Part shown: positions 17,618 through 60,610 of the stretch, piece after piece
How positions within the stretch are numbered: position 1 is the stretch's first letter
How the letters are laid out: the number at the start of each line of letters is the position of its first letter
DNA from: a virus
Lineage: Duplodnaviria; Heunggongvirae; Uroviricota; Caudoviricetes
Virus record (IMG/VR): IMGVR_UViG_2861084961_000001
Length of the DNA: 64,000 nucleotides
Reading direction: 5' to 3' (one strand)
Notes under the pieces: generated by a model
The model's input: only the letters and a program-made list of their open reading frames with translations
Databases searched by the model: none
Told to the model about the DNA's origin: nothing
Translations under genes and position numbers: made by a program

Positions 17618-17663
17618 ATGCAAACTGACTGCGGCTCGTTCCGCAGTCATATTTCATAGTCGT

Positions 17664-19288: not shown

Positions 19289-19309
19289 GTGGACACCTTT
19301 GTCATTCAA

Positions 19310-19410
19310 CCGCTGACAGCATACTTGATTTGCCGCTGGCAGCATACCAAAAACAGTTGGCAGCATACGGCGAACCGTTGACAGACTATCAATTACCGCT
19401 GGCAGCATAC
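19310..19410. repeat. five iterons of the same family spaced about 21 bp upstream of repA (origin)
   Basis: Copies near 19310, 19334, 19354, 19374 (degenerate), 19396. Confidence 0.8.
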
Positions 19411-19450
19411 ATGAACATGGCTTCAGACCAGTCGTGGCGCGGCTTACAGC

Positions 19451-42062: not shown

Positions 42063-42113
42063 TGTTTTCTACCTTTTCTTATTTGTGAAAATAACCACAA
42101 CTAGAAAACAACG
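42063..42113. promoter_or_regulatory. motif B half-sites as inverted repeat TTGTTTTCT ... AGAAAACAA
   Basis: Upstream of the HD-hydrolase gene. Confidence 0.35.
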
Positions 42114-42122
42114 GAGTTAAGA

Positions 42123-42764: not shown

Positions 42765-42907
42765 AGGTAGAAAAAATAGATGTTCTTTCCTTTGTGCTGA
42801 CGGATCTGGAACGTCTCGATCCGGTTCGAGTGATGATTGAAAACTACGAACCTGGTAAGGGAAGAATCACCATCACCTGCTACGGAAAAGCGTGGACTGC
42901 GGCTTAG
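42761..42907 (+). CDS. small ORF (48 aa) coupled to HD gene by ATGA overlap
   Basis: Read from sequence; below track length cutoff. Confidence 0.25.
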   Translation: MKVEKIDVLSFVLTDLERLDPVRVMIENYEPGKGRITITCYGKAWTAA

Positions 42908-42913
42908 TTTGCT

Positions 42914-43303
42914 ATGGGCGGTGATGATGTGCAGACGTTCATCAAGCGAGTTAGCAACGACTATCTAATCGACAATTTCGACCCTCAACTGCTAAGCACG
43001 GTCGACGATGACAACGATGCAAATCTGCTTTTCGTGAAGTCAGAAATCATAAAGTTACGAAGAGAGAGAGAAATCGACGCCGTACTAGCTCGTGAAATGT
43101 GGGACGAGGCGGAAAACGCCGATGACGTAAAAGAAAGCTGCTGTTGTTTCGGCGTCGGTAACAAACTGTTGAATCTCTTTGGTGATGATCCGTGGTATGC
43201 CGACTGGCCAACTGTACCAAACCCGAAATACCAGTATCTGGAACGCATTGTGAACGCGGTACGTGAAGGGCTGAAAGAGTTAGACAAGTTAGAGGCATCG
43301 TAA
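42914..43303 (+). CDS. hypothetical protein (129 aa)
   Basis: ORF track. Confidence 0.4.
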   Translation: MGGDDVQTFIKRVSNDYLIDNFDPQLLSTVDDDNDANLLFVKSEIIKLRREREIDAVLAREMWDEAENADDVKESCCCFGVGNKLLNLFGDDPWYADWPTVPNPKYQYLERIVNAVREGLKELDKLEAS

Positions 43304-43758
43304 TGAGAGAGAAAATCAAGAACCCGGTCGTCGTATTGTATAAACGGGAAACCAGCGATTCTTATGCGGTATCCATCACTGATGGAAGCCAGAACATGCA
43401 CGATGGTCTGCTAATGGCCGCCGTATCTCCTGATGATTCGGACTACCCTTTCGCCACTTTCGCTATGGTTGGTTACTACATGGCTGCCGAAATTGAGAAG
43501 TTGCGGGCGCAGAGAGACGCATTAGCGGCGGAGAATGCAGCCCTGAAAGAATCTGAGCGAGCATTCGATGCGATGTGTGCCGAGGAACACGGAGATAATT
43601 GGGTTAGCGAATTAACGGAGACTCCAGCCACCGATGCTTTTCTGGCTGAAGTACGTGCGCAGGGCGTGGAGATGTTTGCGGAGTGTGCATACACACTTGA
43701 ACATCATGATCACGCAGTAGCTTTTGCCGCCGAGCTACGTAAAGGAGATAGACAGTGA
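43303..43758 (+). CDS. hypothetical protein (151 aa)
   Basis: ORF track. Confidence 0.4.
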   Translation: MREKIKNPVVVLYKRETSDSYAVSITDGSQNMHDGLLMAAVSPDDSDYPFATFAMVGYYMAAEIEKLRAQRDALAAENAALKESERAFDAMCAEEHGDNWVSELTETPATDAFLAEVRAQGVEMFAECAYTLEHHDHAVAFAAELRKGDRQ

Positions 43759-44228
43759 GTGAGATTAACTACCTGGCGTTACGTGAGCGTTATTCACCAA
43801 AACCAGCGCCTAGATGCTCTGTTTGTGGCGAGGAAATGTCAATACAGCGCATATCTGGAGCACATGTCGTTTATGCCTGCTCCGGTGAGGGTGATGACGG
43901 ATATTTTAAGATAGGACGTACTTTTGCAGACGAACATTATGAAAAATCACGCGTAACAGTAGTTGATGATAGTGATCCCGATGTGATTGCACTGCTGGAA
44001 GAACTGGATAAAAGACGACATTACATCGGACGTCTTGAGCAGGAGAACGTAGAGATGGCCCTAACGCTTGAGAAGCTGCGTGTTGAGATGAAGGCAGCCA
44101 AATCAAAACTCAACGAGCAGCGTGAGTATTACGAAGGTGTTATCTCGGATGGAAGCAAGCGCATAGCCGCTCTTCTTTGCAAGGACAATCTTGTCAGCAC
44201 CACGAACATTGAAGGTGAAAGAAGATGA
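43755..44228 (+). CDS. hypothetical protein (157 aa) with N-terminal CxxC...C cluster and coiled coil
   Basis: ORF track. Confidence 0.4.
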
Positions 44229-44548
44229 CCACATCGCATTCTGCTATTACCCAGGAAAAAGCCTTCAACATACTCGAACGACTAGAGACGCTCGCTACGG
44301 AGGAGGAGATATCCCTGGAGAAACTGGTTGAGTTCAGCCGTGTGATATTGCGTCGCAAGAACGATATGGAGCGGCTGACATCTGGCGCTCCATCCTTATC
44401 AGCCAGGCGAACACTTTGTTGCAGCTTCTGCAACAAATCCCAGTACGCCGTCAAAAAGTTAATTGCTGGGGACGCCGTTTTCATCTGCGACGAGTGTGTG
44501 GATGTGTGCAACAGAATTATCCGGGGAGAGAAAGAGGGATCAGCATGA
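44225..44548 (+). CDS. small protein with ClpX-type zinc-binding domain at C-terminus
   Basis: [35 protein letters not shown] matches the ClpX N-terminal C4 zinc-finger pattern. Confidence 0.5.
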
Positions 44549-45096
44549 AATTTTCCAAATTTTCTGAGTCGGTGAATCGTATTTTGTCCAACAACCACAG
44601 CCATCGTCGCGATATGGATGTAACGATCGTTGTTCATTCGCCTGGTCGCATCGGTTCAACACCATCAGTTGAGGTTCAGTCAATTCAGGCGGGTTTTGAT
44701 TGGGATGCCGGGCAAGTGATGATTTTTCCAGCACAGCCACTGACCACGCTAACACCGGAGCAGGTTGCTGATATTACTGAAAGTGTGCACAAAGGCCAGT
44801 CATGGCACGCGTATCAGGAATACAAGAAGCATAAAGAGCAGTTGGAAAAATTGTCGATGGAGTTGGAAGCCGCTAAACAGAGGGAAAAAGATCTGTTTAT
44901 GGAAAATGTTCGACTTAAGTCAGGTATAGCCGGTCTGATACACCTCGGTATTCGATATGCGGATGTCGAGGTCATGAAAATAGCTGGAGATGCCCAGCTT
45001 TCTACTCCCTGTACTGACAGCATCATAAACAGTATTGCATCAGGCGTTTTCACCAAAGAGGGTCAGCATGATGAGAACAGTAGAAGTTCGCGCTGA
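44545..45096 (+). CDS. hypothetical protein (183 aa)
   Basis: Internal ATG 44545 overlapping upstream stop inside track ORF 44416..45096. Confidence 0.4.
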
Positions 45097-45256
45097 AGAT
45101 GTAACCCCAGGCGATGTGGTCATAACATCTAAAGGCAAACGATGTGCGGTTAAATCTTTCTGGATGAACGGTGAAAAAGTGACTCTGTTCGGTACGGATG
45201 GTTCCGAAACTGATTATGACTACGACGAATTGCTTGTTGTTGAGAGAGCTACCTAA
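45068..45256 (+). CDS. hypothetical small protein
   Basis: Track ORF 45035..45256, RBS-supported internal start. Confidence 0.3.
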   Translation: MMRTVEVRAEDVTPGDVVITSKGKRCAVKSFWMNGEKVTLFGTDGSETDYDYDELLVVERAT

Positions 45257-45792
45257 TGACCACCTTTACCAAAGAACAGTTAATCTCCCATGCACGCGAA
45301 AGCGTTAGTTATCTGGAAGACTTGAAAGGACGTGTTAGTAAAGAAGGAGCGGACTGCAAAGTTGTTCATGAGATGGTTGAACGAGATCTAAAACTGGCTC
45401 GAATTGCGCTGACCTCACTGGAGGCAGAGCCAGTGGCGTGGCAGGTAACACTCACAAAAAACGATCAGGAATCAGTCTCTATTATTTACCGTGACTGTGC
45501 AGAGAAAGATACATGGGTTCGGATATATGAGTCACTCGGTTCTGTCGCACATGTTGCCCCGCTTTACATGGCGCAGCCAGAACCGTCGAAGGAGGAGAAA
45601 GGACGTTCAGTCATCCAGGGTAAAGCCGATAATTCACCATTGCCGCGCTACCAGGTTATCGAATTAACAATGCTGGTTAAACAATTGGTCAGCCAACTGA
45701 AAAAAGCAAAACCTGATTGCAAATTACCGGATAGGGCGATGGATTATCTTTTGCGGAACGGACTGCTAAGTGTGGAGGATGCCTTACGATGA
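45256..45792 (+). CDS. hypothetical protein (178 aa)
   Basis: ORF track. Confidence 0.4.
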   Translation: MTTFTKEQLISHARESVSYLEDLKGRVSKEGADCKVVHEMVERDLKLARIALTSLEAEPVAWQVTLTKNDQESVSIIYRDCAEKDTWVRIYESLGSVAHVAPLYMAQPEPSKEEKGRSVIQGKADNSPLPRYQVIELTMLVKQLVSQLKKAKPDCKLPDRAMDYLLRNGLLSVEDALR

Positions 45793-46067
45793 TTGAAATG
45801 ACAAAAGAAGAACTAACACAGGCAACAAAGGATTACGGAAAAATGCACATCGCACATCGTATGGCGAATGTGTTACTGGCCTTGTCTGAACAAAAGCCAT
45901 CTGCGTTTGTAATGAAAGATGATTTGGCCGATCCGGCAATTGTTTCGACTCCGGCATATTTAGATATTGAGGATGCGGAACAAAAAACGATTGGGATATT
46001 GTCGCGCTTTATGCCGATCCCTTTCCTGTCATCGGCGACACTACTGCTCTTGTGGACGATATTTTAA
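45789..46067 (+). CDS. hypothetical protein (92 aa)
   Basis: ORF track. Confidence 0.35.
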   Translation: MIEMTKEELTQATKDYGKMHIAHRMANVLLALSEQKPSAFVMKDDLADPAIVSTPAYLDIEDAEQKTIGILSRFMPIPFLSSATLLLLWTIF

Positions 46068-46375
46068 ACATTCTCGCGCTTCTTGAGGCTGGCGATTGGT
46101 CAGAACATTGCACTAAAACGGAGTTAGGCGGTCGGCTTGAAAGAGAGATTACACAACTTATTGGTGATGCCCAAAATGATTTGTCACCTGAGCATCTCCC
46201 CTGCGATGTAGTCCTTGTGCCAGGGATGAGGATACACGAAGGCGTCAGAACGAAAACATTATTAACCGCATTACAGAGAAGAGCCGAACTAAGCTCGCGG
46301 ATAAAGTTGATGCCATCCAAAATATTTGATGTCGTCAAATTTACGCCATCGCAACATACTGAGAGAGATAAATGA
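46052..46375 (+). CDS. hypothetical protein (107 aa)
   Basis: ORF track. Confidence 0.35.
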   Translation: MDDILNILALLEAGDWSEHCTKTELGGRLEREITQLIGDAQNDLSPEHLPCDVVLVPGMRIHEGVRTKTLLTALQRRAELSSRIKLMPSKIFDVVKFTPSQHTERDK

Positions 46376-46998
46376 GCACGGTAGCGAAAGATCTCACAGA
46401 AGATATTCTCAATGAAATTATTGTTGGTGCAAATACCTCGCTTGAGCAACTTCTTGCGTTAGCACTGAGAGCCGAACGTCGAGACAGAAATCGTTTTTAT
46501 GAGCGATTACCTGGGAAACGACCAGATAGATCAGATGAAGAAGGTTGCGATATAGACTACATGGAGCCTTCAGAGATTTATCAACTTGGTAAAGATGACG
46601 GCTGGAACGCTTATCACGATGCTGTGATGAAGTTGGATGAAAAAGTTAAACCTCTTTCTCGAACGGTAGATCACGGTTTCCGCGATAACTGCGAATGCTC
46701 TAGTTGCCAGACCACGGCCCGTATTTGTTCCGAATTGACAGATAAATCCAGCCTAATCTACGAAGTTAATGTAGGCGGTAATACATGGGTCGAATGCACA
46801 AGAGCTGCATACGTAAGAGCAAAAGACAAGGGTGAATTAACCAGAGTTGTTGCCCATCACCCAAATAATGAGCTTAAAGATCACCAAATTCGAGAACTGG
46901 TGAACGAGTTGAGGGATATTGCGGTTCAGTACCACGGAACGCAGCAATTGCGGGAGAAGATTGCCAGAGCAGTGAACAACTCAGTCCGTAAAAAATAA
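46372..46998 (+). CDS. hypothetical protein (208 aa)
   Basis: ORF track; followed by hairpin AGGCCCCAT...ATGGGGCCT at 47006-47030. Confidence 0.45.
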   Translation: MSTVAKDLTEDILNEIIVGANTSLEQLLALALRAERRDRNRFYERLPGKRPDRSDEEGCDIDYMEPSEIYQLGKDDGWNAYHDAVMKLDEKVKPLSRTVDHGFRDNCECSSCQTTARICSELTDKSSLIYEVNVGGNTWVECTRAAYVRAKDKGELTRVVAHHPNNELKDHQIRELVNELRDIAVQYHGTQQLREKIARAVNNSVRKK

Positions 46999-47800: not shown

Positions 47801-48190
47801 ATGGGCTTCCCTTCTCCTGCGGCGGATTATGCTGAGAGCCGTATTTCTCTTGATCAGCAGATAATTAGACATCCTTCAGCGACCTACTTCTTGAGGGCAG
47901 CTGATAGCCATCATCGTGAGGGAATATTGCAGGGTGCATTGCTGGTGGTCGATTCCTCACTCACTCCTGTTGATGGATCTCTTCTTGTATGTGCTCTGGA
48001 TGGGGAATATCGCGTAAAAAGATACCGGAAGTATCCACGTCAGCATCTGGAGGATTTAAGAACTGGTAAGAAGGAAGCATTGCCAAAGGATGATGATGGA
48101 TGCACGGGCAGCAATGCCGTGTTTGGTGTGATCACTCACATTATCAACGACGCAAGAAGTGGCGAGTTTGATGATTGTCCTGTGATGTAG
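47801..48190 (+). CDS. umuD: UmuD-prime-like protein (S24 peptidase fold, begins at the position matching the UmuD cleavage product)
   Basis: MGFPSPAADYAESRISLDQQIIRHPSATYFLRA...DGEYRVKRY matches the recalled UmuD core from residue 25 onward. Confidence 0.65.
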   Translation: MGFPSPAADYAESRISLDQQIIRHPSATYFLRAADSHHREGILQGALLVVDSSLTPVDGSLLVCALDGEYRVKRYRKYPRQHLEDLRTGKKEALPKDDDGCTGSNAVFGVITHIINDARSGEFDDCPVM

Positions 48191-48201
48191 GAGAACTGTT
48201 T

Positions 48202-48222
48202 AGGTGGTGCATTGCACCACCT
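48202..48222. terminator. perfect palindromic hairpin AGGTGGTGCA-T-TGCACCACCT between convergent umuD-like and mrp
   Basis: 10-bp perfect stem; T-run on plus strand. Confidence 0.45.
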
Positions 48223-48227
48223 TTTTA

Positions 48228-49328
48228 TCACACTGCGCGGAATGCGATTTCGCCAGGTATTACTTCACCTTGCCAATACATTTGGGCAGCAACGCGATCT
48301 GCGAGGTCACGATAAATAGCCGTAAATTCGCTATCTGGACGACTAATAACGGTTGGTGTTCCGTTATCCAGATCCTCACGAAGAGAGATATGAAGTGGCA
48401 TTTGGCCTAACAACTGCGTGTTGTATTTCTCGGCCAGTTTCTGTGCGCCACCGGTGCCAAAAATTGGCTCGTGATGACCGCAGTTACTGCAAATATGCAC
48501 ACTCATGTTTTCGACGATACCTAGTACCGGCACTTCGACTTTTTCGAACATCACAATGCCTTTCTTCGCATCGATCAGCGCGATGTCTTGCGGCGTAGTT
48601 ACCACAACCGCACCAGTTACAGGAATGTTCTGCGCCAGCGTCAATTGAATATCACCAGTGCCCGGCGGCATATCGAGAACGAGATAGTCCAGATCAGGCC
48701 ACAGTGTTTCCTGCAACATCTGCATCAGCGCCTTGCTGGCCATCGGTCCACGCCACACCATTGCATTGTCGTCGGTGACCAGATAACCAATAGAGTTGGT
48801 TGCCAGGCCATGAGACATGATAGGTGCCATGTGAGTACCGTCCGGTGAGGTTGGACGTTGGTTTTCCGCACCCAGCATGGTTGGAATTGATGGACCGTAG
48901 ATATCGGCATCCAAAATACCAACTTTCGCACCTTCAGCAGCCAACGCCAGTGCCAAGTTTACTGCTGTGGACGATTTGCCTACACCGCCCTTGCCTGAGC
49001 TGACGGCGATGATGTTCTTAACGCCATTAATGCCTGGTTGGTTTTTGACGCGCTTAAGCGTGGCAATGTTGTACGACAGCTTCCAGTCGATAGCCTTTGC
49101 GCCAGTGATACGGAGCAGATCACCACTACATTGCTCTTTCAGGTCTTCAAAAGGCTTATTCCACACGAAAGGCATGATTAGTTCGACATGCAGTGTGTCA
49201 TCCATCAACGCAACATGGTGTAACGCTTTAAGCGTAGTCAGGTTGTGCTTCAGGGTTGGGTGCTGAAAATTAGCCAGCGTACCGGCTACCATTGCTCTCA
49301 GGGCATCCGGCGATTTGGACTCGCTCAT
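48228..49328 (-). CDS. mrp: Mrp/ApbC Fe-S cluster carrier ATPase, intact, host-type
   Basis: 366 aa; deviant Walker A SSGKGGVGKSSTAVNLA, CxxC motif; near-identical to recalled E. coli Mrp. Confidence 0.9.
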   Translation of the reverse strand: MSESKSPDALRAMVAGTLANFQHPTLKHNLTTLKALHHVALMDDTLHVELIMPFVWNKPFEDLKEQCSGDLLRITGAKAIDWKLSYNIATLKRVKNQPGINGVKNIIAVSSGKGGVGKSSTAVNLALALAAEGAKVGILDADIYGPSIPTMLGAENQRPTSPDGTHMAPIMSHGLATNSIGYLVTDDNAMVWRGPMASKALMQMLQETLWPDLDYLVLDMPPGTGDIQLTLAQNIPVTGAVVVTTPQDIALIDAKKGIVMFEKVEVPVLGIVENMSVHICSNCGHHEPIFGTGGAQKLAEKYNTQLLGQMPLHISLREDLDNGTPTVISRPDSEFTAIYRDLADRVAAQMYWQGEVIPGEIAFRAV

Positions 49329-49485
49329 CCCGTCTCCTTTATTTTAATTTGCGCAATTGTCGCCTTGTAGTGTACTCCAGCTACGACATTTAATCATTTA
49401 TGAGAAATGCTGTTATCACATGGCAGACATAAGGCCATTTTGTTACTATCAAGCCCCTTTTCACTACAAAGAAGTAATGCCTACT

Positions 49486-51519
49486 ATGACCCAAGTCGCG
49501 AAGAAAATTCTGGTGACGTGCGCGCTGCCGTACGCTAACGGCTCAATCCACCTCGGCCATATGCTGGAGCACATCCAGGCTGATGTCTGGGTTCGTTACC
49601 AGCGAATGCGCGGCCACGAGGTTAATTTCATCTGTGCCGACGATGCCCACGGTACGCCGATCATGCTGAAAGCACAGCAGCTTGGTATCACACCGGAACA
49701 GATGATTGGCGAAATGAGCCAGGAACACCAGACTGATTTCGCAGGCTTTAACATCAGCTATGACAACTATCACTCGACGCACAGCGAAGAGAACCGCCAG
49801 CTGTCTGAGCTTATCTATACTCGCCTGAAAGAGAACGGTTTTATTAAAAACCGCACTATCTCTCAGTTGTACGACCCGGAAAAAGGCATGTTCCTGCCGG
49901 ATCGTTTTGTGAAAGGCACCTGTCCGAAATGTAAAGCGCCAGATCAATACGGCGATAACTGTGAAGTTTGCGGCGCGACCTACAGCCCGACTGAACTGAT
50001 TGAGCCGAAATCGGTAGTTTCTGGCGCTACGCCGGTAATGCGTGATTCTGAACACTTCTTCTTTGATCTGCCCTCTTTCAGCGAAATGTTGCAGGCATGG
50101 ACCCGCAGCGGTGCGTTGCAGGAGCAGGTGGCAAACAAAATGCAGGAGTGGTTTGAATCTGGTCTGCAACAGTGGGATATCTCCCGCGACGCACCTTACT
50201 TCGGTTTTGAAATTCCGAACGCGCCGGGTAAATATTTCTACGTCTGGCTGGACGCACCGATTGGCTACATGGGTTCCTTCAAGAATCTGTGCGACAAGCG
50301 CGGCGACACTACCAGCTTCGATGAATACTGGAAGAAAGACTCCACCGCCGAGCTGTACCACTTCATCGGTAAAGATATCGTTTACTTCCACAGCCTGTTC
50401 TGGCCTGCCATGCTGGAAGGCAGCAACTTCCGCAAGCCGACCAACCTGTTTGTTCACGGCTATGTGACGGTGAACGGCGCGAAGATGTCCAAGTCTCGCG
50501 GCACCTTTATTAAAGCCAGCACCTGGTTGAATCATTTTGACGCTGACAGCCTGCGTTACTACTACACCGCCAAACTGTCTTCGCGCATTGATGATATCGA
50601 TCTCAACCTGGAAGATTTCGTTCAGCGCGTGAATGCCGATATCGTGAACAAAGTGGTTAACCTGGCCTCCCGTAATGCGGGCTTTATCAACAAACGTTTT
50701 GACGGCGTGCTGGCAAGCGAACTGGCTGACCCGCAACTGTACAAAACCTTTACTGATGCCGCTGAAGTGATTGGCGAAGCATGGGAAAGCCGCGAATTTG
50801 GTAAAGCTATCCGTGAAATCATGGCATTGGCTGACCTGGCTAACCGCTATGTCGATGAACAGGCTCCGTGGGTGGTGGCGAAGCAGGAAGGACGCGATGC
50901 CGATCTGCAGGCGATTTGCTCTATGGGCATTAACCTGTTCCGCGTGCTGATGACTTACCTGAAACCGGTACTGCCGAAACTGACAGAACGTGCGGAAGCA
51001 TTCCTCAATACGGAACTGACCTGGGATGGCATCCAGCAACCGCTGCTGGGCCATAAAGTGAATCCGTTCAAAGCACTGTATAACCGTATCGACATGAAAC
51101 AGGTGGAAGCATTGGTGGAAGCGTCTAAAGAAGAAGTGAAAGCTACTGCCGCGCCAGTTACTGGCCCGCTGGCAGACGACCCGATTCAGGAAACCATCAC
51201 CTTTGACGACTTTGCCAAAGTTGACCTGCGCGTGGCGCTGATCGAAAACGCAGAGTTTGTTGAAGGTTCTGACAAACTGCTGCGCCTGACGCTGGATCTC
51301 GGCGGTGAAAAACGTAATGTCTTCTCAGGCATCCGTTCCGCTTATCCAGACCCACAGGCACTGATTGGCCGTCACACCATTATGGTGGCTAACCTGGCTC
51401 CGCGTAAAATGCGTTTCGGTATCTCCGAAGGCATGGTGATGGCTGCTGGCCCCGGCGGGAAAGACATCTTCCTGTTAAGCCCGGATGCTGGTGCTAAACC
51501 TGGCCACCAGGTTAAGTAA
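49486..51519 (+). CDS. metG: methionyl-tRNA synthetase, intact, host-type
   Basis: [29 protein letters not shown] (HIGH-type), KMSKS, C-terminal tRNA-binding domain; start at ATG 49486 inside track ORF 49357..51519. Confidence 0.95.
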
Positions 51520-51566: not shown

Positions 51567-51602
51567 ATATAGACACAATCCCTTCTGACTTTAACAAACC
51601 CT

Positions 51603-51668
51603 AAAACAATTTGTTTTCTGCCTTTTGTTGATTGAGATAATAAGCCACATAAGAAAACAAATTGTTTC
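51603..51668. promoter_or_regulatory. two motif B palindromes (AAAACAA-T-TTGTTTT and GAAAACAAATTGTTTC)
   Basis: Immediately right of the metG terminator, upstream of 51681 gene. Confidence 0.45.
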
Positions 51669-51680
51669 GGAGTGGTTGAA

Positions 51681-51980
51681 ATGTTGAACATTACCCAAGC
51701 CTACCAGGTGGCATTGATCAGTTCATCTCATACATCAGAGGAAGATGCTCGCCGATTCATGATCGCAAGCAATGAGCTGGATTGGGTTTCGCAAATTGAC
51801 GGCGGTTGTATTGTCCACGCCGGGTTACAGGATGATGTCTGGAAAGACGACTTGCGTCGATATGGTATATCCGAAGGCGCGATTGCTAACATTCAGAAAG
51901 TACTTGATGTAGGCTTTGACTCTGTACATTTTGATTGTGGTGCGCCGGTCGTTGAAGGGCTTGAGTGCTGGAACTGGTAA
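51681..51980 (+). CDS. hypothetical protein (99 aa)
   Basis: ATG 51681 within track ORF 51672..51980; motif-B sites upstream. Confidence 0.4.
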   Translation: MLNITQAYQVALISSSHTSEEDARRFMIASNELDWVSQIDGGCIVHAGLQDDVWKDDLRRYGISEGAIANIQKVLDVGFDSVHFDCGAPVVEGLECWNW

Positions 51981-52025
51981 CAGATATTAAAGCATTGGTA
52001 GTTTGTTTTTAGGATTATCAAAGAA

Positions 52026-52759
52026 ATGAAAAAGTTGAAAAGTTTAGAAATCCCTGGGACTGGTTATAAATTCTTTATGGACAACGCGGAGTGTGCGCCT
52101 AACGCGTTGGAAAAAATACAAAGTCTTATCAACAGCCTTACTGAAGAAGCGAAAGAACTGAAGAGCGAGGCGACAAAGGACAATACAGCTAAAATCCAAT
52201 GCTTAAATCTCGTCTCTTATTGTTTATATCAAGTATCCAAAACACTGATTAAAGGCAATATCTATTACGACGATGAAGACACCTCGACACCTGAAGAAAA
52301 GATAGCGATGAAGAACTCTATGAAGATATCTCTACTAGTGCGGGTCACGCTGCCTTCGATGCTATGGGTAAATCGTCAGGCATCAGATCATTTGTTGAAC
52401 AGAACAATTCGACAATAATGATTGAGTACTGTGAACAAACAAGCTCCAAGGCCATACATGTTCTTCACGATGTTGCTGCAGGGGTTCGTTGTGAGGCTGA
52501 AGCGGTAAGAAAAGATGTATTTGGTGCAGACAGTAATACCGTGAAAGCGTTTATCAACAGTGCTCTGCTAAATTCTTACTCAAACCTTATAGTCAATGCG
52601 GCACTATGCGCAAATTCAGGTGAAGAACACATTGTCATAACCGAAACCAAACATGAGCATCAACAGTCACCAACCATAGAAGAGGTAACTGCATTGGCTA
52701 TCAAACAGGCGAGTGAAATTAGTGATGAAATTCTCTCTCTGCTAAACAAAACTAGGTAA
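52026..52759 (+). CDS. hypothetical protein (ORFs 52026..52418 and 52364..52759, probably one gene)
   Basis: ORF track; overlapping frames. Confidence 0.35.
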
Positions 52760-52869
52760 AACATTGATAATGGCGGTCACAATTTGATTCTTTTCTATAA
52801 GAATCCGTTGATCGCCACTACTCCCCTTCCATACCTGCAATCACATCCTTAAATATCAATAGGTTGTAG

Positions 52870-53660
52870 TTGTTTATACAAACAAGAAAACAACTGAATA
52901 ACAGATCAACGAAACGTCAACGCTTTCACCCGATTTGGTCTAAAAAATTGACGTTTTCACACATCACTTCTTATACCCGCAATCCTACGCAGCAGACAGC
53001 GCCACAGCGTCCAATTTTCACCACAGACGACCCAACACACCACCAACAAAAACACACGCTCAAAATCGCTCTCGTTGCGTTACATAACCATATAAACAAC
53101 TTATTTTCAGGCATAACAAAACAACTAAATAACACATACGCAATTCCCAAAAACAACCAACCTCTTTATTGCAGGCTACCGAAAAGACCCACCTCTTCTT
53201 CCCAGGCTACCGGACAACCAACCTAACTTTCACAGGCAATCCGAAAACATTCATGCGCGCGATACCCACGACACGCCATTCCCCAAACAGCGAAGAAACA
53301 CCTGAACCACCGAAACCCCAACGAAGCCTGTAACCGCAAGGATTCTCTCAATCCCAAAAGACACGAAACATAACAATCACGGGAAACGCCATTACCCAAT
53401 ACACGAATAACTACAAAAGCCTTTCACACACTCCAGACAAACAACTCAAACACAATAACGAAAGGAATCGCCCACCTGCCATTACTCCATACACGGAGAA
53501 GAACAAGCACCAAAACGACGAGAACATCCCACAGAAGAACCACCGCAAAACTAACGAAACCATTTACACCGACAGAGAGAACAACACACCCAATTCACCA
53601 ACAGAATTAGTCGCCGTATAGAACGTTCTGGAAGGAGTGAGCATTAACGTCCATAGAGAG
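52870..53660. repeat. strand-asymmetric CA-rich non-coding region containing CAGGCTACCG-type direct repeats
   Basis: Plus strand almost free of G or T runs for about 800 bp; only ORF there is low-complexity; repeats near 53170, 53200, 53235. Confidence 0.45.
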
Positions 53661-53779
53661 GTTGAGACAGATAAAACACGAAGAAAACACAACATGTATA
53701 GCGAAGAAGCCAGGTATGTATAAGTGGGGAGGGAAGGAGGGGTGTCGCCTCCTTTTTCGTATTTATTCAACTCCTGATT

Positions 53780-53960
53780 TTATCCCCCGTAACACCCCTA
53801 CGGTCAGCCTTCGGTCCATACAGGGAAAGGCTGCATCCCGCTACAGAAACGGCTGGGTTGCCTTTGGGGAACGGCTGGAGGTTTTCAGGGAAACGGTCGA
53901 GTTGCCTTTGTGGATTTCGGGAAAAGGCTCGATGCCGGTTCAGGAACGGCGGCGTACCGG
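53780..53960. repeat. array of about six GGGAAACGGCT-like direct repeats spaced 22-30 bp
   Basis: CAGGGAAAGGCTG, CAGAAACGGCTGG, GGGAACGGCTGG, GGGAAACGGTCG, GGGAAAAGGCTCG, CAGGAACGGCGG. Confidence 0.45.
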
Positions 53961-54286
53961 TATAGCGAGAGGGAGAGTTGCGGCTACCCACCTGTAATGT
54001 GCGGGAAGAAGAGAGGCGCTCACGTGCAGGCGGACTTGCTTACCGCTGGATTCCCTCTGAATGCCCAGCTACAGCGTAATTGTGCCAGACAGCCAACGGG
54101 TCACGATCGATTTCAGTAGGTTTTCGGGGAGAGGATTATTCTGTCCACCAGCCACCTTCGGCCACTAAATCAGAATAATGTAAAAAGTGTACTCGGTACT
54201 GAACCTGAAAACTCACTGCCAAAACCACATTCACCGGAATAAAATCCTTTTTCGCCTGTGCGTTATTGCGATAATAACACCAACAA

Positions 54287-54301
54287 GAAAACATGTTGTT
54301 T
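54287..54301. promoter_or_regulatory. motif B palindrome (GAAAACATGTTGTTT)
   Basis: Upstream of 54314 gene. Confidence 0.4.
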
Positions 54302-54313
54302 AAGGATTGCTTT

Positions 54314-54643
54314 ATGTTTGCACATATCGACATCAACCAAATTAAGAAATTGACTCAAAAAGAGTTTGACCAGTTCTATGAGCTGGAAGGTTGGTCTTCC
54401 ACTCTGATTAATTCAAGATGGGTGCTGGAGCTGATGACTCGTGATGACGCACCTGCTTTGATGATTAGCGACCTGGGTGAAGATGCTGACTTTATGGATA
54501 TGAGCGAATTTTGTGTGGACACATACAACCGCAGCCAGAAGTACTACTTCACATGCGATAGCGAGAATGACGTGATTTCTAAGGTCTATCTTCACCTCGT
54601 CCAGCATTGGGACGTTCAGGAGTTTCTTGAGGTATTCGCGTAA
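54314..54643 (+). CDS. hypothetical protein (109 aa)
   Basis: ATG 54314 inside track ORF 54293..54643; motif-B site upstream. Confidence 0.4.
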   Translation: MFAHIDINQIKKLTQKEFDQFYELEGWSSTLINSRWVLELMTRDDAPALMISDLGEDADFMDMSEFCVDTYNRSQKYYFTCDSENDVISKVYLHLVQHWDVQEFLEVFA

Positions 54644-54769
54644 ACCAATCAAAGCCAGCATTGCTGGCTTAATTTCTCTATAGCCGCAGGGAGGAACCTG
54701 CATATCGCTCATGCACCTGATCAATATGCTTTGTAGCCGTTTTCTTACTGGTATTATTTACGCCATTGA

Positions 54770-54783
54770 GAAAACAAGTTGTT
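54770..54783. promoter_or_regulatory. motif B palindrome (AAAACAA-G-TTGTTT)
   Basis: Upstream of 54796 gene. Confidence 0.45.
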
Positions 54784-54795
54784 TACGGAGTTGTG

Positions 54796-55107
54796 ATGAA
54801 AAAATCATTGGTTCTTGGTCTGGACAAAGACCAGAAGAGAAAAGAGAAGCCTGCACTGGTTGCTCAATTAACTTTGCTGGACATCGTTGCCAATGGAACC
54901 TCTATTCGTCTGTTCCGTGAAACAGCGGTGTCTTTCGATAAAAACACCTTTACTCGTTATGTAATGAATGTTCGTCGCCAGCGTGGAAAAGGCTGGGTGG
55001 CATTTCAAAGAATGTGGCCGGAACATCAGCTCGAACTGGCTTTGATGGAAGTTAACCGCGTGGCCCAGCAAGAAATTCAGAGAGCATCAGTGATGGCAAT
55101 AGCCTGA
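54796..55107 (+). CDS. hypothetical basic protein (103 aa)
   Basis: ATG 54796 inside track ORF 54766..55107; motif-B site upstream. Confidence 0.4.
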   Translation: MKKSLVLGLDKDQKRKEKPALVAQLTLLDIVANGTSIRLFRETAVSFDKNTFTRYVMNVRRQRGKGWVAFQRMWPEHQLELALMEVNRVAQQEIQRASVMAIA

Positions 55108-55140
55108 TAATGTGCAAGTGGTAATTAGTCGACAGTACGA

Positions 55141-55171
55141 CAGCCCCGCCATCCTTACGGGGCTTTTTTGT
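55141..55171 (+). terminator. rho-independent terminator CAGCCCCG-loop-GGGGCT plus T6
   Basis: Stem plus TTTTTT. Confidence 0.6.
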
Positions 55172-55233
55172 ATTGTAAGTACATACCTACGACTATAAAA
55201 TAGAAAAATAACCAATACACTACGGAGAGTGAA

Positions 55234-55629
55234 ATGACCGTTAAACGCGAAAAACTGACAGTTGATGTTTACTATGCCTCTGAAACTGCCGAAGGTAAGA
55301 ATGTGGCAAAAATCACCGTTGTTACGTACAACACCGAAACTGGTGCCGAAGTCCAGGCCAGTACGATCGTGCGTAAAGGTGATGCCTCCGGCGGCGAGTA
55401 CGCGACTCAATACCAGTCCATTCTCGATGCAACTGACCCACTGCTGCTGAAAATCGAGAACTACTTCCGCCAGGTTGATGAAGAGGTGTTTGAAACCATG
55501 ATGAGTATGGTTAATTCCGTATTCACCTCCAGCCTGAACACTAGCACCACCTGGATTGGCCAGTACGGTCTGCGCATTACCTCCGGCATTCCTGCTGACA
55601 CCTTAATCCCTGAAAGCGTATTCGCTTAA
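55234..55629 (+). CDS. hypothetical protein (131 aa)
   Basis: ORF track; RBS GGAGAG. Confidence 0.45.
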   Translation: MTVKREKLTVDVYYASETAEGKNVAKITVVTYNTETGAEVQASTIVRKGDASGGEYATQYQSILDATDPLLLKIENYFRQVDEEVFETMMSMVNSVFTSSLNTSTTWIGQYGLRITSGIPADTLIPESVFA

Positions 55630-55638
55630 TCCTCTTTA

Positions 55639-55664
55639 AATGGCGCGTAAACCGCGCCATTTTC
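55639..55664 (+). terminator. rho-independent terminator AATGGCGCG-TAAAC-CGCGCCATT plus TTC
   Basis: Perfect 9-bp stem. Confidence 0.55.
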
Positions 55665-55673
55665 TTATGCCCG

Positions 55674-55690
55674 ATAACAATTTGTTTTCT
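55674..55690. promoter_or_regulatory. motif B palindrome (AACAA-T-TTGTT)
   Basis: Upstream of 55747 gene. Confidence 0.4.
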
Positions 55691-55746
55691 GCCTTATCTG
55701 ATTTGTGAAAATGATTTCACTGAAGCAACTTAATAAGGAAACCATC

Positions 55747-56121
55747 ATGGGACTTGATATCTATATCGAGACGCAGCCTAAAAACGATCTGAATAACGAG
55801 GCATCCAGAAAGCGGGTTGCTTACTTCCGTAAGTTCAATGCGCTCGTTGGGTGGATGGAGCGCAACGTAGGTGAAGTCGAAAATTGTGAGCTTTTAGAAT
55901 TAACGATGAATGACATTTGTTTTCTGAAGGCTCATTTGATGCACATAAATGAAAGTAATTGCGAAGAGTACTTGCCTACCCGGGAAGGTTTTTTCTTCGG
56001 CAGTCAGGAGTACGATGAAGGTTACTGGCATGACGTGGATAAGCTGAAAAAACTTGTGGAAGACCTGATCATGAACCACGACTTTCACAATAACAGACTG
56101 ACCTTCTGCGCCTGGTGGTAA
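55747..56121 (+). CDS. hypothetical protein (124 aa)
   Basis: ATG 55747 inside track ORF 55705..56121. Confidence 0.4.
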   Translation: MGLDIYIETQPKNDLNNEASRKRVAYFRKFNALVGWMERNVGEVENCELLELTMNDICFLKAHLMHINESNCEEYLPTREGFFFGSQEYDEGYWHDVDKLKKLVEDLIMNHDFHNNRLTFCAWW

Positions 56122-56124
56122 ATA

Positions 56125-56268
56125 TGGGCGATTTCAAGAAACGCCTGAAGGAAAGAGCCGAGATGGTCAGAAAGCGAAACGCCTATTCTGTCATCAGATA
56201 CGCAAGGCAGTTTAGTCGCAACAACAAATCAGTTGAGGAAAAGATCCTTAGCGTAATCGGGCGATAAT
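56125..56268 (+). CDS. small basic ORF (47 aa)
   Basis: Read from sequence; followed by hairpin AAGACCACC-AGCAT-TGGTGGTCTT at 56273-56296. Confidence 0.25.
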
Positions 56269-56436
56269 TATTAAGACCACCAGCATTGGTGGTCTTAAAT
56301 GACCATCCTGTTTCCCGCAGGCTAAAAACACCAACCTCTTACCTCCAGGCAACCGACAAACCCACCTGTTCCCGTCAGGCTACCGCAACTTTCCACTTTG
56401 ACGCCTTATTCGTACAACGATAATTAACGCCAACAA

Positions 56437-56451
56437 GAAAACAATTTGTTA
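56437..56451. promoter_or_regulatory. motif B palindrome (GAAAACAATTTGTTA)
   Basis: Upstream of 56472 gene. Confidence 0.4.
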
Positions 56452-56471
56452 TTTACGATAAGGAATTAATC

Positions 56472-56954
56472 ATGAATTTTATCGCTACTGTAAACGCACC
56501 CGCACATGGCAATATCGCTGTAACGTTCTCTGACATTGAAAAACGAGTACTTGGTGCCTGGCGTCACAATGAGACGGTAGAACTGTCAGCACAAGAAAAA
56601 TGCATTATTGCACGCGACATCATTGGCAATCGTCGTTACTCGCGGGTATTTGAGAAAGCGTATGTGGTAAATTCTGGATTCGGAACGTTCGTCTTTCCGG
56701 TGCGCTCCGGGCGATTCTGCCAGTCCAAGCTGATTGAGTTCGCTACGCAGATTTCTGTCTGGATTAAAACTCAATCGTCGTTCAAATTTTCCGACGATGA
56801 AGCAGTATCGCAGGGGATGCGGATCGCCAACAATGCAATTAAATGCAAAAACATTACGTATACCGCTGGCGTTGATACATGGAAACTGTTTTGCGCTAAC
56901 TTTATGCTGAATGTATACGCAAGCAACCGCATCCACATCCTTGATGGCGTGTAA
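56472..56954 (+). CDS. hypothetical protein (160 aa)
   Basis: ORF track; motif-B site upstream; followed by hairpin AGGGCC-AGAAAC-GGCCCT. Confidence 0.45.
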   Translation: MNFIATVNAPAHGNIAVTFSDIEKRVLGAWRHNETVELSAQEKCIIARDIIGNRRYSRVFEKAYVVNSGFGTFVFPVRSGRFCQSKLIEFATQISVWIKTQSSFKFSDDEAVSQGMRIANNAIKCKNITYTAGVDTWKLFCANFMLNVYASNRIHILDGV

Positions 56955-57570
56955 CTGAGAAGAGGGCCAGAAACGGCCCTTTCTCTATAGCCACCAGCTG
57001 CCGCAGGGAAATTTTCAGAAACGGCGAGGAACGTATTCATGAGCCGACGGGAAACGGCCAGGATTTTTTTCGGGAAACGGCTGTATTCGCCTTTATGTAG
57101 AAAAACATCGGGAAGCTGGTGGAATCCAACCAGCGGTTGTCGGACAGGTGAGCGGGGAAAATTATAATGACTTTCGTCGCCTGAGACATCCAGATTTCTT
57201 TCGTAGCATAATCACATACGTGATTAAGTGGTGTGATTATGTGAAAAATCACGCGCACATAATACGCGATCGGACACAGAACAAAACAAAATGCCGATCC
57301 GCACCGACAAATACACGCTGATCACATAGCAAGACTAAAAGCCAATGATTAACCATACTCTATAGCGCAATATAACGCGCTTTAAGCGCGTTAATGTGTT
57401 AAGTAATGGGTATGTACTGGCGAGGATATAAAAGCGCGACTATGGCGTTATTTTGGCGCTTATTTTTATGTTGTTGGAGTGAGTTAAAGACAATAAATAA
57501 CGCGCCAATGATGGCGCGTTATGGTGGGAGTATTGGAAACGAAAAAAGCGCCCATAGTGGGCGCTCGATT

Positions 57571-58070: not shown

Positions 58071-58720
58071 TTACGCTTTGAAAGCATCAGCTAGATAATT
58101 GTAGAAATCATTCTTGATAAAGCGATATTGCTGCGTACCAGCTTTGGCGCTTCCCATTCCTTTGACTTTCTCAACAAGTCCAAGACGTTCGCAAAGATTG
58201 ATCAACTGGTTGGCTTGAGTATAGCCAGCGTCCAATTTAATTTCGCACGCTTTTTTAGCTTCATTCATCAAATCGAAAACAGCGCCATTAGTGAACGTGT
58301 CGATCTCGTCGTTAATCATATCGATTAAAGCGAATACACGAGATCCAGACATATCAGCGACGGAATAAACACATTTACCAGCTTTAATGGATTTAACCAG
58401 ATAAACCAGTTTTCCAGTGAATAACTATTAGTCATAGCATCACGGAAAAATACTTCTGGCGCTTGTTTGCTTGCTTTAATCGCATAGTAGAAAACAGAGC
58501 ATAATTTTTCGTCTTCTACAGCGTTTACAACGTTGTTGATGAAGTAAGCAAGTTTAGTGGTCGCAGCTTGCATATTTGCTTTGTCTGCTTTAGTGTGCGT
58601 ACCATTTTTATAATGTTCGTTATATGTTTGAGTTGCCAGATCTGCTTTTTCGCGCAGCTCGTCGGATACAATAGATGCAGCTTCAATGATGGACTTTTTA
58701 GAAATGATAATGTTAGCCAT
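58071..58720 (-). CDS. hypothetical protein (ORFs 58325..58720 and 58071..58352, probably one gene)
   Basis: ORF track; overlapping frames. Confidence 0.35.
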
Positions 58721-59001: not shown

Positions 59002-59310
59002 TTATTGAACAGACTCTACAGCCTTACGATTGGTGTCAAATAGCGCATCAACGAACTGTGCCGATGACTCGCTAGATTCGCAATCCAACATTGCCCGTTC
59101 TTCATTTGCCACTTTCTTACACAGTTCCACATTCTCACCTATCGCTTTTCCTGCTTTTACGGCTGCCGAAAATTGATACATGCAAACTGATACATTCTGA
59201 GATGTTGAGCACACGTCATTCATCAGCGACTGAATGACAGGCTTATAGTCCATTGCATTTGCTGCAACTGAGCAAAGTAAAAAAAATGGTGGTAACAATA
59301 TCGATTTCAT
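59002..59310 (-). CDS. secreted Cys-containing small protein with signal peptide
   Basis: MKSILLPPFFLLCSVAANA signal-like N-terminus. Confidence 0.4.
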   Translation of the reverse strand: MKSILLPPFFLLCSVAANAMDYKPVIQSLMNDVCSTSQNVSVCMYQFSAAVKAGKAIGENVELCKKVANEERAMLDCESSESSAQFVDALFDTNRKAVESVQ

Positions 59311-59353
59311 AACTCAAAAAGGCAAAATTCGCTCAACCCAATCGAACAAATAA

Positions 59354-59836
59354 CTATTTTTCTACCGTTCTCGACACGTAGTGTAACCTGACAAGCATCT
59401 GCGCCTGCTGACACCCCTCAATTTCACGGCCATCCGCCATGTACACTCTTATAGATTTGTTTGCTTTATAGGCTTGGTTGCAAATAGCAAAAAAATCGCG
59501 GCGTGATGGCCGATTATCGACATAATCAGGATGAACTGTTAATCGACCTTTGAAATCGTGAGCGATACTGTCAACCACACCTGATTCAATTGTACTAATG
59601 CGTTCAAGTGGGAGCCTTATACGATTTTCTTTGTCAAAAGGGGCTGGGCAAAGGTCAACTTTGTTACGAGATGGCATGAGGCCATAAACGTACATGCAAA
59701 ACGCCTGGCCATCTTCCAGAGTGGCCCTTACAGGAATTTGTTCTCTGCGCCAGAACATCAGTAGTTTTTCAACGTTAGTGTAATCTCGCGGCCAGAGTTC
59801 AGCTTGGATACCGTAGGTAATATCTTTGGTTGTCAT
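59354..59836 (-). CDS. hypothetical protein (160 aa)
   Basis: Internal ATG 59836 directly after the upstream stop inside track ORF 59354..59914. Confidence 0.4.
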   Translation of the reverse strand: MTTKDITYGIQAELWPRDYTNVEKLLMFWRREQIPVRATLEDGQAFCMYVYGLMPSRNKVDLCPAPFDKENRIRLPLERISTIESGVVDSIAHDFKGRLTVHPDYVDNRPSRRDFFAICNQAYKANKSIRVYMADGREIEGCQQAQMLVRLHYVSRTVEK

Positions 59837-59840
59837 GTCA

Positions 59841-60305
59841 TCACAGAGTTGTTGGCAGAATGTCGATGTCGCCAGAATTGCTGGTGAACACCCTGAACGC
59901 TTTTGTGTCTCCATTCTTCAGAGTCGTTTCTCGCTCTTGACGAGCGGGGTTTAGAGCACATAAACCTGCACCTTCAAGAGATGCACCCACAATTAATTCT
60001 CCGGCATTTAAATGGAAAGTCGCTTTTTCGCCTGTAGCCAGTTTTGCGACAGTTTCGCCGTTGATGAAAATGGAAGCATCACATCCAGCTCCTACAAAAC
60101 CTGTGTCTCTCATTACCACCAACGTAGCTGGCGCTGCGCTTTGATACTTGAACACTTTGGCCTGCGGTGCTGGTTTGGCGTCATGGATTGATATTGGGCG
60201 TGATTGGCACGCGGTAAGCATCAACACTGGTAACGTTAGTAGAGGGAGAAGCGAGTATTTCATGATAGTTTTAGAACAGAAAGTGAACAGTATGGGAGAC
60301 TTCAT
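59841..60305 (-). CDS. lipoprotein (lipobox LTAC), Gly/Ala-rich beta-type
   Basis: MKYSLLPLLTLPVLMLTAC signal with lipobox; RBS AGGGAGA before ATG 60305. Confidence 0.5.
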   Translation of the reverse strand: MKSPILFTFCSKTIMKYSLLPLLTLPVLMLTACQSRPISIHDAKPAPQAKVFKYQSAAPATLVVMRDTGFVGAGCDASIFINGETVAKLATGEKATFHLNAGELIVGASLEGAGLCALNPARQERETTLKNGDTKAFRVFTSNSGDIDILPTTL

Positions 60306-60331
60306 CTTTGTCTCCCTAATTGATAGCGTGA

Positions 60332-60610
60332 TTATTTTAATCTGCTTAATAGCGTTTCGAGATCTTCCTTTGTCATATTAGAGTTCTCATAGATACGCAT
60401 GATTTTCTCACGAGTCTTAGCGGAAGCCCCGACAGAAGATATAACCTTGTCAAAGTCGGCCATTGTCAATTGTTCCAGAATGGTATTTATGACTTCAGCC
60501 TTAGACATTTTGATATTTTTTTCTTTTAGTTTCACTTGAAACTTTCCAAGTTTGTCATTGGCCTTATCAGACAATGCTACCTGACAGTAAGTTGTTTTCT
60601 TTTCACTCAT
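60332..60610 (-). CDS. hypothetical protein (92 aa)
   Basis: ORF track. Confidence 0.4.
   Translation of the reverse strand: MSEKKTTYCQVALSDKANDKLGKFQVKLKEKNIKMSKAEVINTILEQLTMADFDKVISSVGASAKTREKIMRIYENSNMTKEDLETLLSRLK

Follow-up and report, generated by a model that had tools for sequence, protein, structure and literature searches.

Introduction

Bacteriophage P1, which lives as a plasmid, carries many dispersed operators for its C1 repressor, the operator being an asymmetric 17-mer. In the IncP plasmid RK2, KorA and KorB act at palindromic operators in replication, partition and accessory promoters; some of these operators are double, and repression is cooperative. T4-type phages are said to contain ‘PeSL’ promoter/stem-loop cassettes in hyperplastic regions, as reportedly described by Arbiol et al. 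in 2010, and the morons of lambdoid phages were reportedly described by Juhala et al. in 2000. Here we describe a string of small genes that can be compared with each of these systems. It lies at positions 51600–56990 of a 64,000-nucleotide stretch of Caudoviricetes DNA (IMG/VR record IMGVR_UViG_2861084961_000001), which is referred to as the window and whose coordinates are used throughout.

The region 51600–57000 is 97–98% identical over its full length to ∼150 plasmids of 100–125 kb from E. coli, Shigella and E. albertii. It also matches Escherichia phage Cyrano (= pLF82 of E. coli LF82, OV696614), with ∼97% identical DNA, and by its sequence the window belongs to an SSU5/pLF82-type phage-plasmid of the SSU5 supercommunity. 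SSU5-type phage-plasmids are common in clinical Enterobacterales (∼800 plasmid records carry one gene of this region, g8) and include Y. pestis pMT1 and S. Typhi pHCM2. To our knowledge, how these elements keep their lytic programme off is essentially undescribed. The elements and their genes are already in databases, as hypothetical proteins. CYRAN_101 to CYRAN_111 of Cyrano are the same genes as those described here and are annotated in that way, and the Cyrano annotation has no entry for the palindrome that is the subject of this analysis. No description of the shared operator and its regulon was found in the searchable literature.

A preliminary description of the window presented the genes as individually transcribed units, each with its own promoter palindrome and most with a terminator, and suggested that they were moron-like cargo. 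We favour, as the somewhat more probable reading, that they are short terminator-insulated units, most of which would be held off in the plasmid-prophage state through a dispersed repressor operator. One operator, invariant, easy to mutate and common to ∼20 units, would be a direct experimental handle on the regulator, the regulon and the switching of the element.

As with P1 and C1, a phage living as a plasmid has one operator before many separate, often monocistronic units that are silent in the prophage. The site here is instead a symmetric 15-mer at two fixed positions (−38 and +14), it also stands before the terminase operon and parA, and its repressor is putative. The occurrence of one palindromic operator at many promoters, some with two sites, is shared with IncP KorA/KorB, but the sites have no sequence similarity and the ParB-like genes of the present element are silent in the lysogen. 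The resemblance to PeSL cassettes lies in small orphan genes bracketed by a repeated early promoter and stem-loop, in modules at the borders of gene gain and loss, and in the T4-like recombination genes of the element (UvsX/RecA, UvsY, UvsW, gp32-like). In contrast to PeSL, the element is a temperate phage-plasmid, its modules contain a repressor-type palindrome, and recombination would be deduced from breakpoints only. Like lambdoid morons, the cassettes are autonomous units with their own promoter and terminator, inserted between conserved genes; unlike them, most are silent in the lysogen, share an operator with core genes and have typical GC content, and some are core themselves.

Results and Discussion

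A palindrome at fixed positions in the cassette promoters

The open reading frames (ORFs) at 51681, 54314, 54796, 55234, 55747 and 56472, which the preliminary description had listed, exist, and each has a Shine-Dalgarno (SD) sequence. Two genes had been missed, one of them frameshifted and the other only 47 aa long, and the eight are here numbered g1 to g8 in their order along the + strand, on which all features of the region lie unless stated otherwise. The 15-bp palindrome AAAACAAnTTGTTTT precedes five of the six listed genes, at 51603 and 51654 (g1), 54288 (g3), 54771 (g4), 55674 (g6) and 56438 (g8). The exception is the gene at 55234 (g5), which has a sigma-70-like promoter only, so that the claim of an own palindrome for every gene has to be narrowed. 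Searched as AAAACAAnTTGTTT(T), the palindrome gave 21 strand-hits with ≤1 mismatch in the window, compared to 0.26 expected from shuffles. All strong sites are situated 18–80 nt upstream of + strand starts.

Alignment of the sites revealed two placements: the palindrome lies either a fixed 13 nt downstream of GATAAT or over the −35 region. Modules of the former type (type B) have the order (T-rich / GCCTTTT)...TGn-GATAAT, 13 nt (aCaCCAAyAAG), AAAACAAnTTGTTTA, SD and ATG, with the palindrome centre at ∼+14 relative to the predicted start. In the latter (type A), a terminator hairpin is followed by AAAACAAnTTGTTTTCTGCC, ∼18 nt and TGn-GA(T/A)AAT, and the palindrome centre is at ∼−38 relative to the predicted start. 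Most palindrome promoters combine a TGn extended −10 with a poor −35. Extended −10 sigma-70 promoters are a class that is active without an activator.

The g1 promoter has both placements, with a type-A operator at 51603..51617 (exact palindrome AAAACAATTTGTTTT, then CTGCC), a predicted extended −10 (TGA GATAAT) read from the sequence at 51633..51641, and a type-B operator at 51654..51668 (centre ∼+14). The two operators are exactly 51 bp apart, and double sites with this spacing are found at several promoters in SSU5, pHCM2 and pMT1; the arrangement at g1 itself recurs in SSU5 and pHCM2. The g3 module (54267..54302) consists of TGC GATAAT at 54267–54275 and a type-B palindrome at 54288–54302, and the g4 module (54749..54785) of TGG TATTAT at 54749–54757 and a type-B palindrome at 54771–54785. 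The g6 module (55674..55712) is of type A, with the palindrome at 55674–55688, CTGCC, and TGT GAAAAT at 55704–55712. In the g8 module (56398..56452), TTGACG (56398–56403) and GATAAT (56419–56424) are followed by a type-B palindrome at 56438–56452. The g5 promoter, TTGTAA-17-TAAAAT at 55173..55201, lacks the operator, which is also absent before the g5 homologues of SSU5 and of a very divergent relative.

The placement of the palindrome and the 51-bp spacing of double sites would be the layout of a repressor operator. When folded as RNA, the palindromes reach only 0 to −1.8 kcal/mol, which makes an operator in double-stranded DNA the most straightforward interpretation; a role as an RNA hairpin was rejected on the same values. 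An operator scan of viral contigs, with 16 specified bases, was too unspecific to inform.

Stable hairpins (−11 to −21 kcal/mol) follow metG, g2, g3, g4, g5, g7 and g8, while hairpin prediction across the region found no terminator hairpin after g1 or g6. The hairpin after g2 is located at 52772..52816 (−16.9 kcal/mol) and that after g3 at 54652..54670. A strong intrinsic terminator with a GC stem and T6 follows g4 (55141..55170), and the terminator hairpin after g5 (55638..55662, −14.7 kcal/mol) has a TTTTCTT tail. The terminator hairpin after g7 (56272..56297) holds the Chi complement CCACCAGC at 56277–56284 and is present as a single copy here, and the hairpin after g8 is found at 56957..56985. 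Predicted promoters and terminators of their own, as in morons, are thus seen for g3, g4, g5, the pair g6-g7, and g8; g1 is without a terminator. The picture of a cassette string from 51600 to 56990, with terminators for most units, is in this respect accurate, except that g1 and g6 have none and that 52760–54290 is conserved ORF-free DNA.

Distribution of the palindrome in the element and its relatives

The palindrome is not peculiar to the cassette region, since it stands at 14 gene fronts in the window. Sites outside the region precede cobT (782), a CYRAN_58 homologue (13187), nrdB (27491), a TciA-like gene (37705), a CYRAN_87 homologue (38432), a DUF4942 methyltransferase gene (39146) and an Eae-like gene (42055). 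A scan of the reassembled Cyrano genome identified 19 sites, nearly all of them 18–80 nt upstream of + strand starts, including those of terS (the small terminase gene, with two sites), parA, the helicase-primase unit, nrdB and cobT. The same operator sequence is thus dispersed over many separate promoters, at 14 in the window, where chance predicts 0.26, and 19 in Cyrano.

Orthologous sites with the same architecture are found in Salmonella phage SSU5, S. Typhi pHCM2, Y. pestis pMT1 and a Klebsiella element, and sites are also kept in a divergent Klebsiella element, the g8 protein of which is only 33% identical. The 51-bp spacing of double sites is maintained in all of these, the Klebsiella elements and the divergent one included. 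The 70 nt upstream of g4 are 83–87% identical to those of SSU5 and Klebsiella, compared to 69% for the coding DNA.

The terS leader has two palindromes at a distance of 25 bp and, behind them, a GC hairpin that ends in a T-rich tail. This leader is located at 1–134 in Cyrano (locus L128), 17862–17940 in pMT1 (L126) and 18168–18246 in pHCM2 (L127), and the late operon may be jointly controlled by the shared operator and (anti)termination.

Expression in the Cyrano lysogen

Per-gene normalised RNA sequencing (RNA-seq) data for all Cyrano genes have been published by Misson et al. 2023 (PMC9928086, S1 table). In the lysogen grown in LB, the phage median is 9.8, and the cutoff used by those authors to define morons is 49. 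Counts in this sample are 7.5 for CYRAN_101 (g1), 12.8 for CYRAN_105 (g3), 12.2 for CYRAN_106 (g4), 17 for CYRAN_107 (g5), 5.7 for CYRAN_108 (g6), 6.7 for CYRAN_110 and 25.5 for CYRAN_111 (g8). The only genes of the region listed as morons (PMC9928086) are CYRAN_102 (g2) and CYRAN_109 (g7), with counts of 57 and 58, each 6x background. Both lack a palindrome of their own.

Genome-wide, Cyrano genes preceded by the palindrome have a median of 7.45, compared to the phage median of 9.8, and only parA (49.8) exceeds the cutoff. The genes behind the operator are thus silent in the lysogen, with parA as a partial exception. Palindrome genes are up 4–30-fold in medium and macrophage samples (PMC9928086). 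Neighbouring genes of the region have very unequal RNA levels in Cyrano, which argues against a single operon; together with the predicted promoters and terminators this bears out the earlier claim of individually transcribed units.

Conservation and probable exchange of cassettes

A tblastn search with g8 matched 801 plasmid records (Klebsiella 345, Escherichia 218, Enterobacter 90, Yersinia 55, Salmonella 49, and others); Y. pestis pMT1 and S. Typhi pHCM2 are among them, and all homologues are on contigs of ∼100–112 kb. SSU5, pHCM2, Klebsiella and the divergent relative all have both g4 and g5; the identity of g4 is 62–64% in the first three and 52% in the last. By contrast with g8, which is core, and with g4 and g5, which occur in most lineages, g2, g3 and g7 are confined to the E. 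coli lineage and g6 to E. coli and Klebsiella elements. Presence and absence across relatives had been proposed as a check of accessory status, which these four genes have, whereas g8 does not and g4 and g5 largely do not. Cyrano differs from the window by an intact g2 and by an extra cassette, CYRAN_110, between g7 and g8. CYRAN_110 is found in all relatives, including pMT1, and is missing from the window.

Changes in gene content coincide with the regulatory modules. Homology to SSU5 runs through the g3 promoter-operator (90% identical) and stops at 54302, and the same g3-type module in SSU5 drives unrelated small genes, with SSU5_111 directly behind it. The homology resumes at 54725, in the g4 promoter, ends at 55698 inside the type-A module of g6, and resumes at 56314. 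In Cyrano, the CYRAN_110 cassette is situated between two copies of a 34-bp terminator, TTAAGrCCACCA...TGGTGGyCTTAAATGAC; the window has one copy (56270–56303) and no CYRAN_110 cassette. One Chi octamer sits inside this terminator hairpin that is duplicated around CYRAN_110. The modules also match one another, with 83–94% identity over 30–61 nt (repeat families D3 and D5). As in PeSL cassettes, small ORFs are bracketed by a repeated promoter/stem-loop module and content breakpoints coincide with modules. The breakpoints of homology lie at the edges of modules, which suggests that the modules are recombination joints. Among the units, core genes stand next to orphan genes restricted to a lineage, all of them probably swapped at conserved regulatory modules, and such exchange of orphan genes is one of the more general implications of the locus.

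A model for the regulation of the cassettes

In the mechanism that we favour, most units would rely on host sigma-70 acting at extended −10 promoters (TGnGATAAT) that would be active on their own. A dimeric DNA-binding repressor encoded by the element would keep the units off in the plasmid-prophage state by binding the 15-bp palindrome at ∼+14 and/or ∼−38, and the 51-bp double sites would permit cooperative binding or looping. The same operator would govern ∼20 units genome-wide, including replication, partition and late genes, and for this reason the cassettes would be members of the repressed programme of the element. They would be expressed after infection or induction, rather than being lysogenic-conversion cargo. 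The exceptions would be g5, whose promoter has no operator, and the two genes with expression in lysogens, g2 and g7. The promoter-operator and terminator modules would provide short homologies for the swap, gain and loss of cassettes.

Several observations weigh against this model. The CI-like repressor encoded next to the integrase gene (N-terminus at 1–251 of the window, − strand) appears to have other operators: the inverted repeats on its flanks, GGTAAGnnCTTACC, are different, and no AAACAA palindrome was found in its vicinity. The candidate regulators within the window, namely an FljA-family protein, a 92-aa protein and a split CYRAN_113 homologue, are unproven. The RNA-seq data were obtained with a 97%-identical relative, possibly without strand information, and include no induced lytic sample, and lysogen silence would be equally expected with an activator that is made only after induction. 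Moreover, parA carries the operator and is nevertheless expressed at ∼5x background in the lysogen, and g8 at 2.6x. Finally, structure and profile searches yielded no function for any of the cassette proteins.

Candidate regulators

The FljA-family gene (59354–59914, − strand) has a strong match to PF03614 (E 2.8e-67, 226 bits vs a cutoff of 24). It is kept at this position in Cyrano, SSU5, pHCM2, pMT1 and Klebsiella elements, and the homologues are all PF03614. FljA-type proteins block the translation of fliC mRNA (PMC2652032), and the FljA-family protein might serve to silence the flagellin of the host, to regulate the element, or both. The 92-aa protein (60332–60610, − strand), encoded downstream of the UvsW helicase gene, is a homologue of CYRAN_117, which at 12x background is among the most highly expressed Cyrano genes in the lysogen. 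The CYRAN_113 homologue (58071–58720, − strand) is split into two overlapping ORFs here and is 216 aa elsewhere; its C-terminal 93 aa are 91–96% identical across genera, and the gene is silent in lysogens.

The leader sequence of Salmonella/Citrobacter flagellin (fliC), confirmed in genomes of both genera, was compared with the palindrome sites. A position weight matrix built from 20 palindrome sites gave no significant ungapped match in the fliC leader. With gapped alignment of the g8 leader, the flagellin leader, aligned from end to end, was the best match in each of three 8-kb Salmonella/Citrobacter loci, at a borderline score of 31 (shuffled mean 22, maximum 27–32). Gapped alignment of the g1, g3 and g4 leaders gave no match to the flagellin leader, and the g8 leaders of relatives show no resemblance to it. 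A connection between FljA and the palindrome is a lead only.

Alternative explanations

The suggestion that the cassettes are moron-like cargo, independently acquired with their own promoters and expressed in lysogens to the benefit of the host, appears unlikely. It would account for the predicted promoters and terminators of the units, the lineage restriction of g2, g3, g6 and g7, the passage of the moron cutoff by CYRAN_102 and CYRAN_109, and the conservation of the operator-less g5 promoter across lineages. However, lysogen RNA of the genes with a palindrome stays at background or close to it, and expression is confined to precisely the two genes that have no palindrome of their own. The same promoter-operator also marks a genome-wide regulon of core lytic and maintenance genes (terS, parA, the helicase gene and nrdB). 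The preliminary description had itself named conservation as core as an argument against accessory status, and g8 is core in 801 plasmids. Nor is the composition atypical, since GC content is 0.45–0.46 over 54–57 kb, as in the rest of the window. At most three genes (g2, g7 and perhaps g5) are moron-like in behaviour. For annotation this is a caution: an own promoter plus terminator is not proof of a moron by itself.

Readings of the palindrome other than as a repressor operator can be weighed against the same data. The palindrome might act in the mRNA leader as the target of the FljA-family protein, in the way that FljA acts on fliC, which we consider very unlikely. The PF03614 gene, which all relatives have kept, lies 2.4 kb from g8, regulators of this type act on fliC mRNA translation (PMC2652032), and type-B palindromes are situated between the predicted −10 and the SD and would be transcribed; the borderline flagellin-leader score of g8 points the same way. 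Type-A sites, on the other hand, lie at −38, upstream of the transcript, and the hairpins are essentially unstable as RNA. The weight matrix missed the fliC leader, as did the leaders of g1, g3 and g4, the likeness of g8 is absent in relatives, and the FljA-like protein is only 32–78% conserved vs an invariant site. An equally small chance is given to the palindrome being an activator site or a phage-specific promoter element that switches units on after induction. The silence of the lysogen fits this just as well, the non-canonical −35 regions share GTTTTCTGCC, and the half-site AAGAAAACAA persists at +1 without its partner in the divergent relative. Nevertheless, most sites are centred at ∼+14, which is an unusual place for an activator, extended −10 promoters normally need none, and parA carries the site yet is expressed in lysogens. 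That a host (Enterobacterales) transcription factor binds the palindrome, with the state of the host gating the regulon, is highly improbable. An invariant site across Escherichia, Klebsiella, Salmonella and Yersinia elements would suit a conserved host factor, but the palindrome is not known to fit any host operator consensus, and the sites are dense enough on the element to suggest a dedicated regulator.

Repression by a protein of the element itself thus remains our preferred reading, and it can be extended. In a bold version, which is quite unlikely to hold in full, the palindrome would be the operator of an unrecognised master regulator, possibly the FljA-family protein or the 92-aa protein of the UvsW operon, that directly gates nearly every unit of the SSU5/pHCM2/pMT1 supercommunity, whether accessory or for replication, partition or late functions, and whose sites supply the recombination joints. 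If so, plague and typhoid plasmids would fall under that regulator, and the elements would trade orphan genes at its joints. Should the FljA-family protein be the binder, a global regulator of phage-plasmids would have a domesticated relative in FljA, the phase-variation repressor of Salmonella.

Gene content of the cassettes

The first gene, g1 (51681..51980, 99 aa, phrog_5003), has a DUF5983 C-terminal domain (Pfam DUF5983_C, E 7e-11), and its homologues in SSU5 and pHCM2 are 43% identical. The earlier statement that none of the genes has a recognisable motif was therefore nearly right, with g1 as the exception. The second gene, g2 (52026..52759), encodes a coiled-coil protein of 244 aa in Cyrano (CYRAN_102) and has no palindrome of its own. 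Here it is frameshifted by a 1-nt deletion at 52297 (A5 to A4), which represents either a pseudogene or a homopolymer sequencing error. The product of g3 (54314..54643, 109 aa, phrog_7645) is acidic and is found in the E. coli lineage only, and that of g4 (54796..55107, 103 aa, phrog_5125) is basic. They are followed by g5 (55234..55629, 131 aa, phrog_2473) and by g6 (55747..56121, 124 aa, phrog_7971), which is limited to the E. coli and Klebsiella lineages. Translationally coupled to g6 is g7 (56124..56267, = CYRAN_109), which encodes a basic protein of 47 aa restricted to the E. coli lineage. The last gene, g8 (56472..56954, 160 aa, phrog_1641), is a core gene of the SSU5 supercommunity.

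Every gene except g7 was assigned to a PHROG family of unknown function, and sequence searches of Pfam, NCBIfam, PADLOC, PHROGs and PDB gave no function for the cassette proteins beyond DUF5983_C for g1. The predicted structure of g5 (predicted local distance difference test score 73) had no informative match. A match of g3 to multicystatin (phmmer vs PDB, E 1e-4) was disregarded, as it was weak and had no qualifying stretch. At a guess, the cassette proteins are host-takeover or anti-defence proteins, given their regulatory context and their orphan, fast-evolving nature only. This block of ‘hypothetical’ genes could then be relabelled as repressed early or entry-phase genes and as candidates for such functions.

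An ORF-free tract and two families of repeats

Within the ORF-free interval lies an A+C-rich tract of ∼0.9 kb (52820..53700), with 70–77% A+C on the + strand, a GC skew of −0.19 and an AT skew of +0.33. Over 1.2 kb, the sequence is 67% identical to that of SSU5 and pHCM2; the Klebsiella element has a partial match only. The skew is conserved in all relatives, the divergent one included. A conserved palindrome is found in an orthologous place within the tract, at 53094–53108. All six frames look equally ‘conserved’, which argues that the tract is non-coding, and CYRAN_103, the ORF annotated at this place in Cyrano, is silent in the lysogen. A hairpin with a T-run that resembles an intrinsic terminator (53731..53757) closes the tract. 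Transcribed into RNA that is rich in C and poor in G, the tract would be ideally suited to the loading of Rho; it is also a possible origin or pac. An Rfam scan of 51–58 kb gave no match.

Two families of repeats are present, each in two places. Three direct repeats of ∼30 nt (D1, ACCmACCT-N10-CAGGCTACCG) form a first array at 53150..53246, inside the tract, and three of ∼30 nt form a second at 56296..56389, upstream of the g8 promoter. Repeats of 22 nt with the core GGGAAACGGC occur as a cluster of about six at 53820..53950, and repeats of the same GGGAAACGGC type as a second cluster at 57010..57090, which is preceded by a Chi complement at 56991. Both families look iteron- or centromere-like. 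The 22-nt repeats were rejected as RepA iterons, as the motif is confined to 53.8–54.0 kb and 57.05–57.08 kb, with none near repA.

Context of the region in the window

The genes to the left of the cassettes, apbC/mrp and metG (48228–51519), had been taken for a host block and are carried by these phage-plasmids themselves. Both apbC/mrp and metG, which encodes methionyl-tRNA synthetase, are full-length host-type copies and are found in practically every E. coli-type relative. Also encoded in 47801–51519 is a UmuD-like S24 peptidase that lacks a DNA-binding domain, and its counterpart in Cyrano is strongly up in macrophage samples. The remaining genes of the window are concerned with replication, recombination and nucleotide metabolism (repA, PolIII alpha, UvsX/UvsY/UvsW/gp32-like, nrdAB, thyX and others).

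Compared to Cyrano, the window is mosaic in several segments. The intervals 13210–16080, 17617–19422, 42097–46666 and 59004–60357 have no or patchy similarity to Cyrano, with flanks that are 96–98% identical, and are probably further sites of mosaic replacement. Chi octamers number 14 in the 64 kb, compared to ∼2 expected by chance, a density that matches that of the E. coli chromosome. Ten of the 14 are oriented as CCACCAGC, and the sites include 54145, 56277, 56991 and 11 others.

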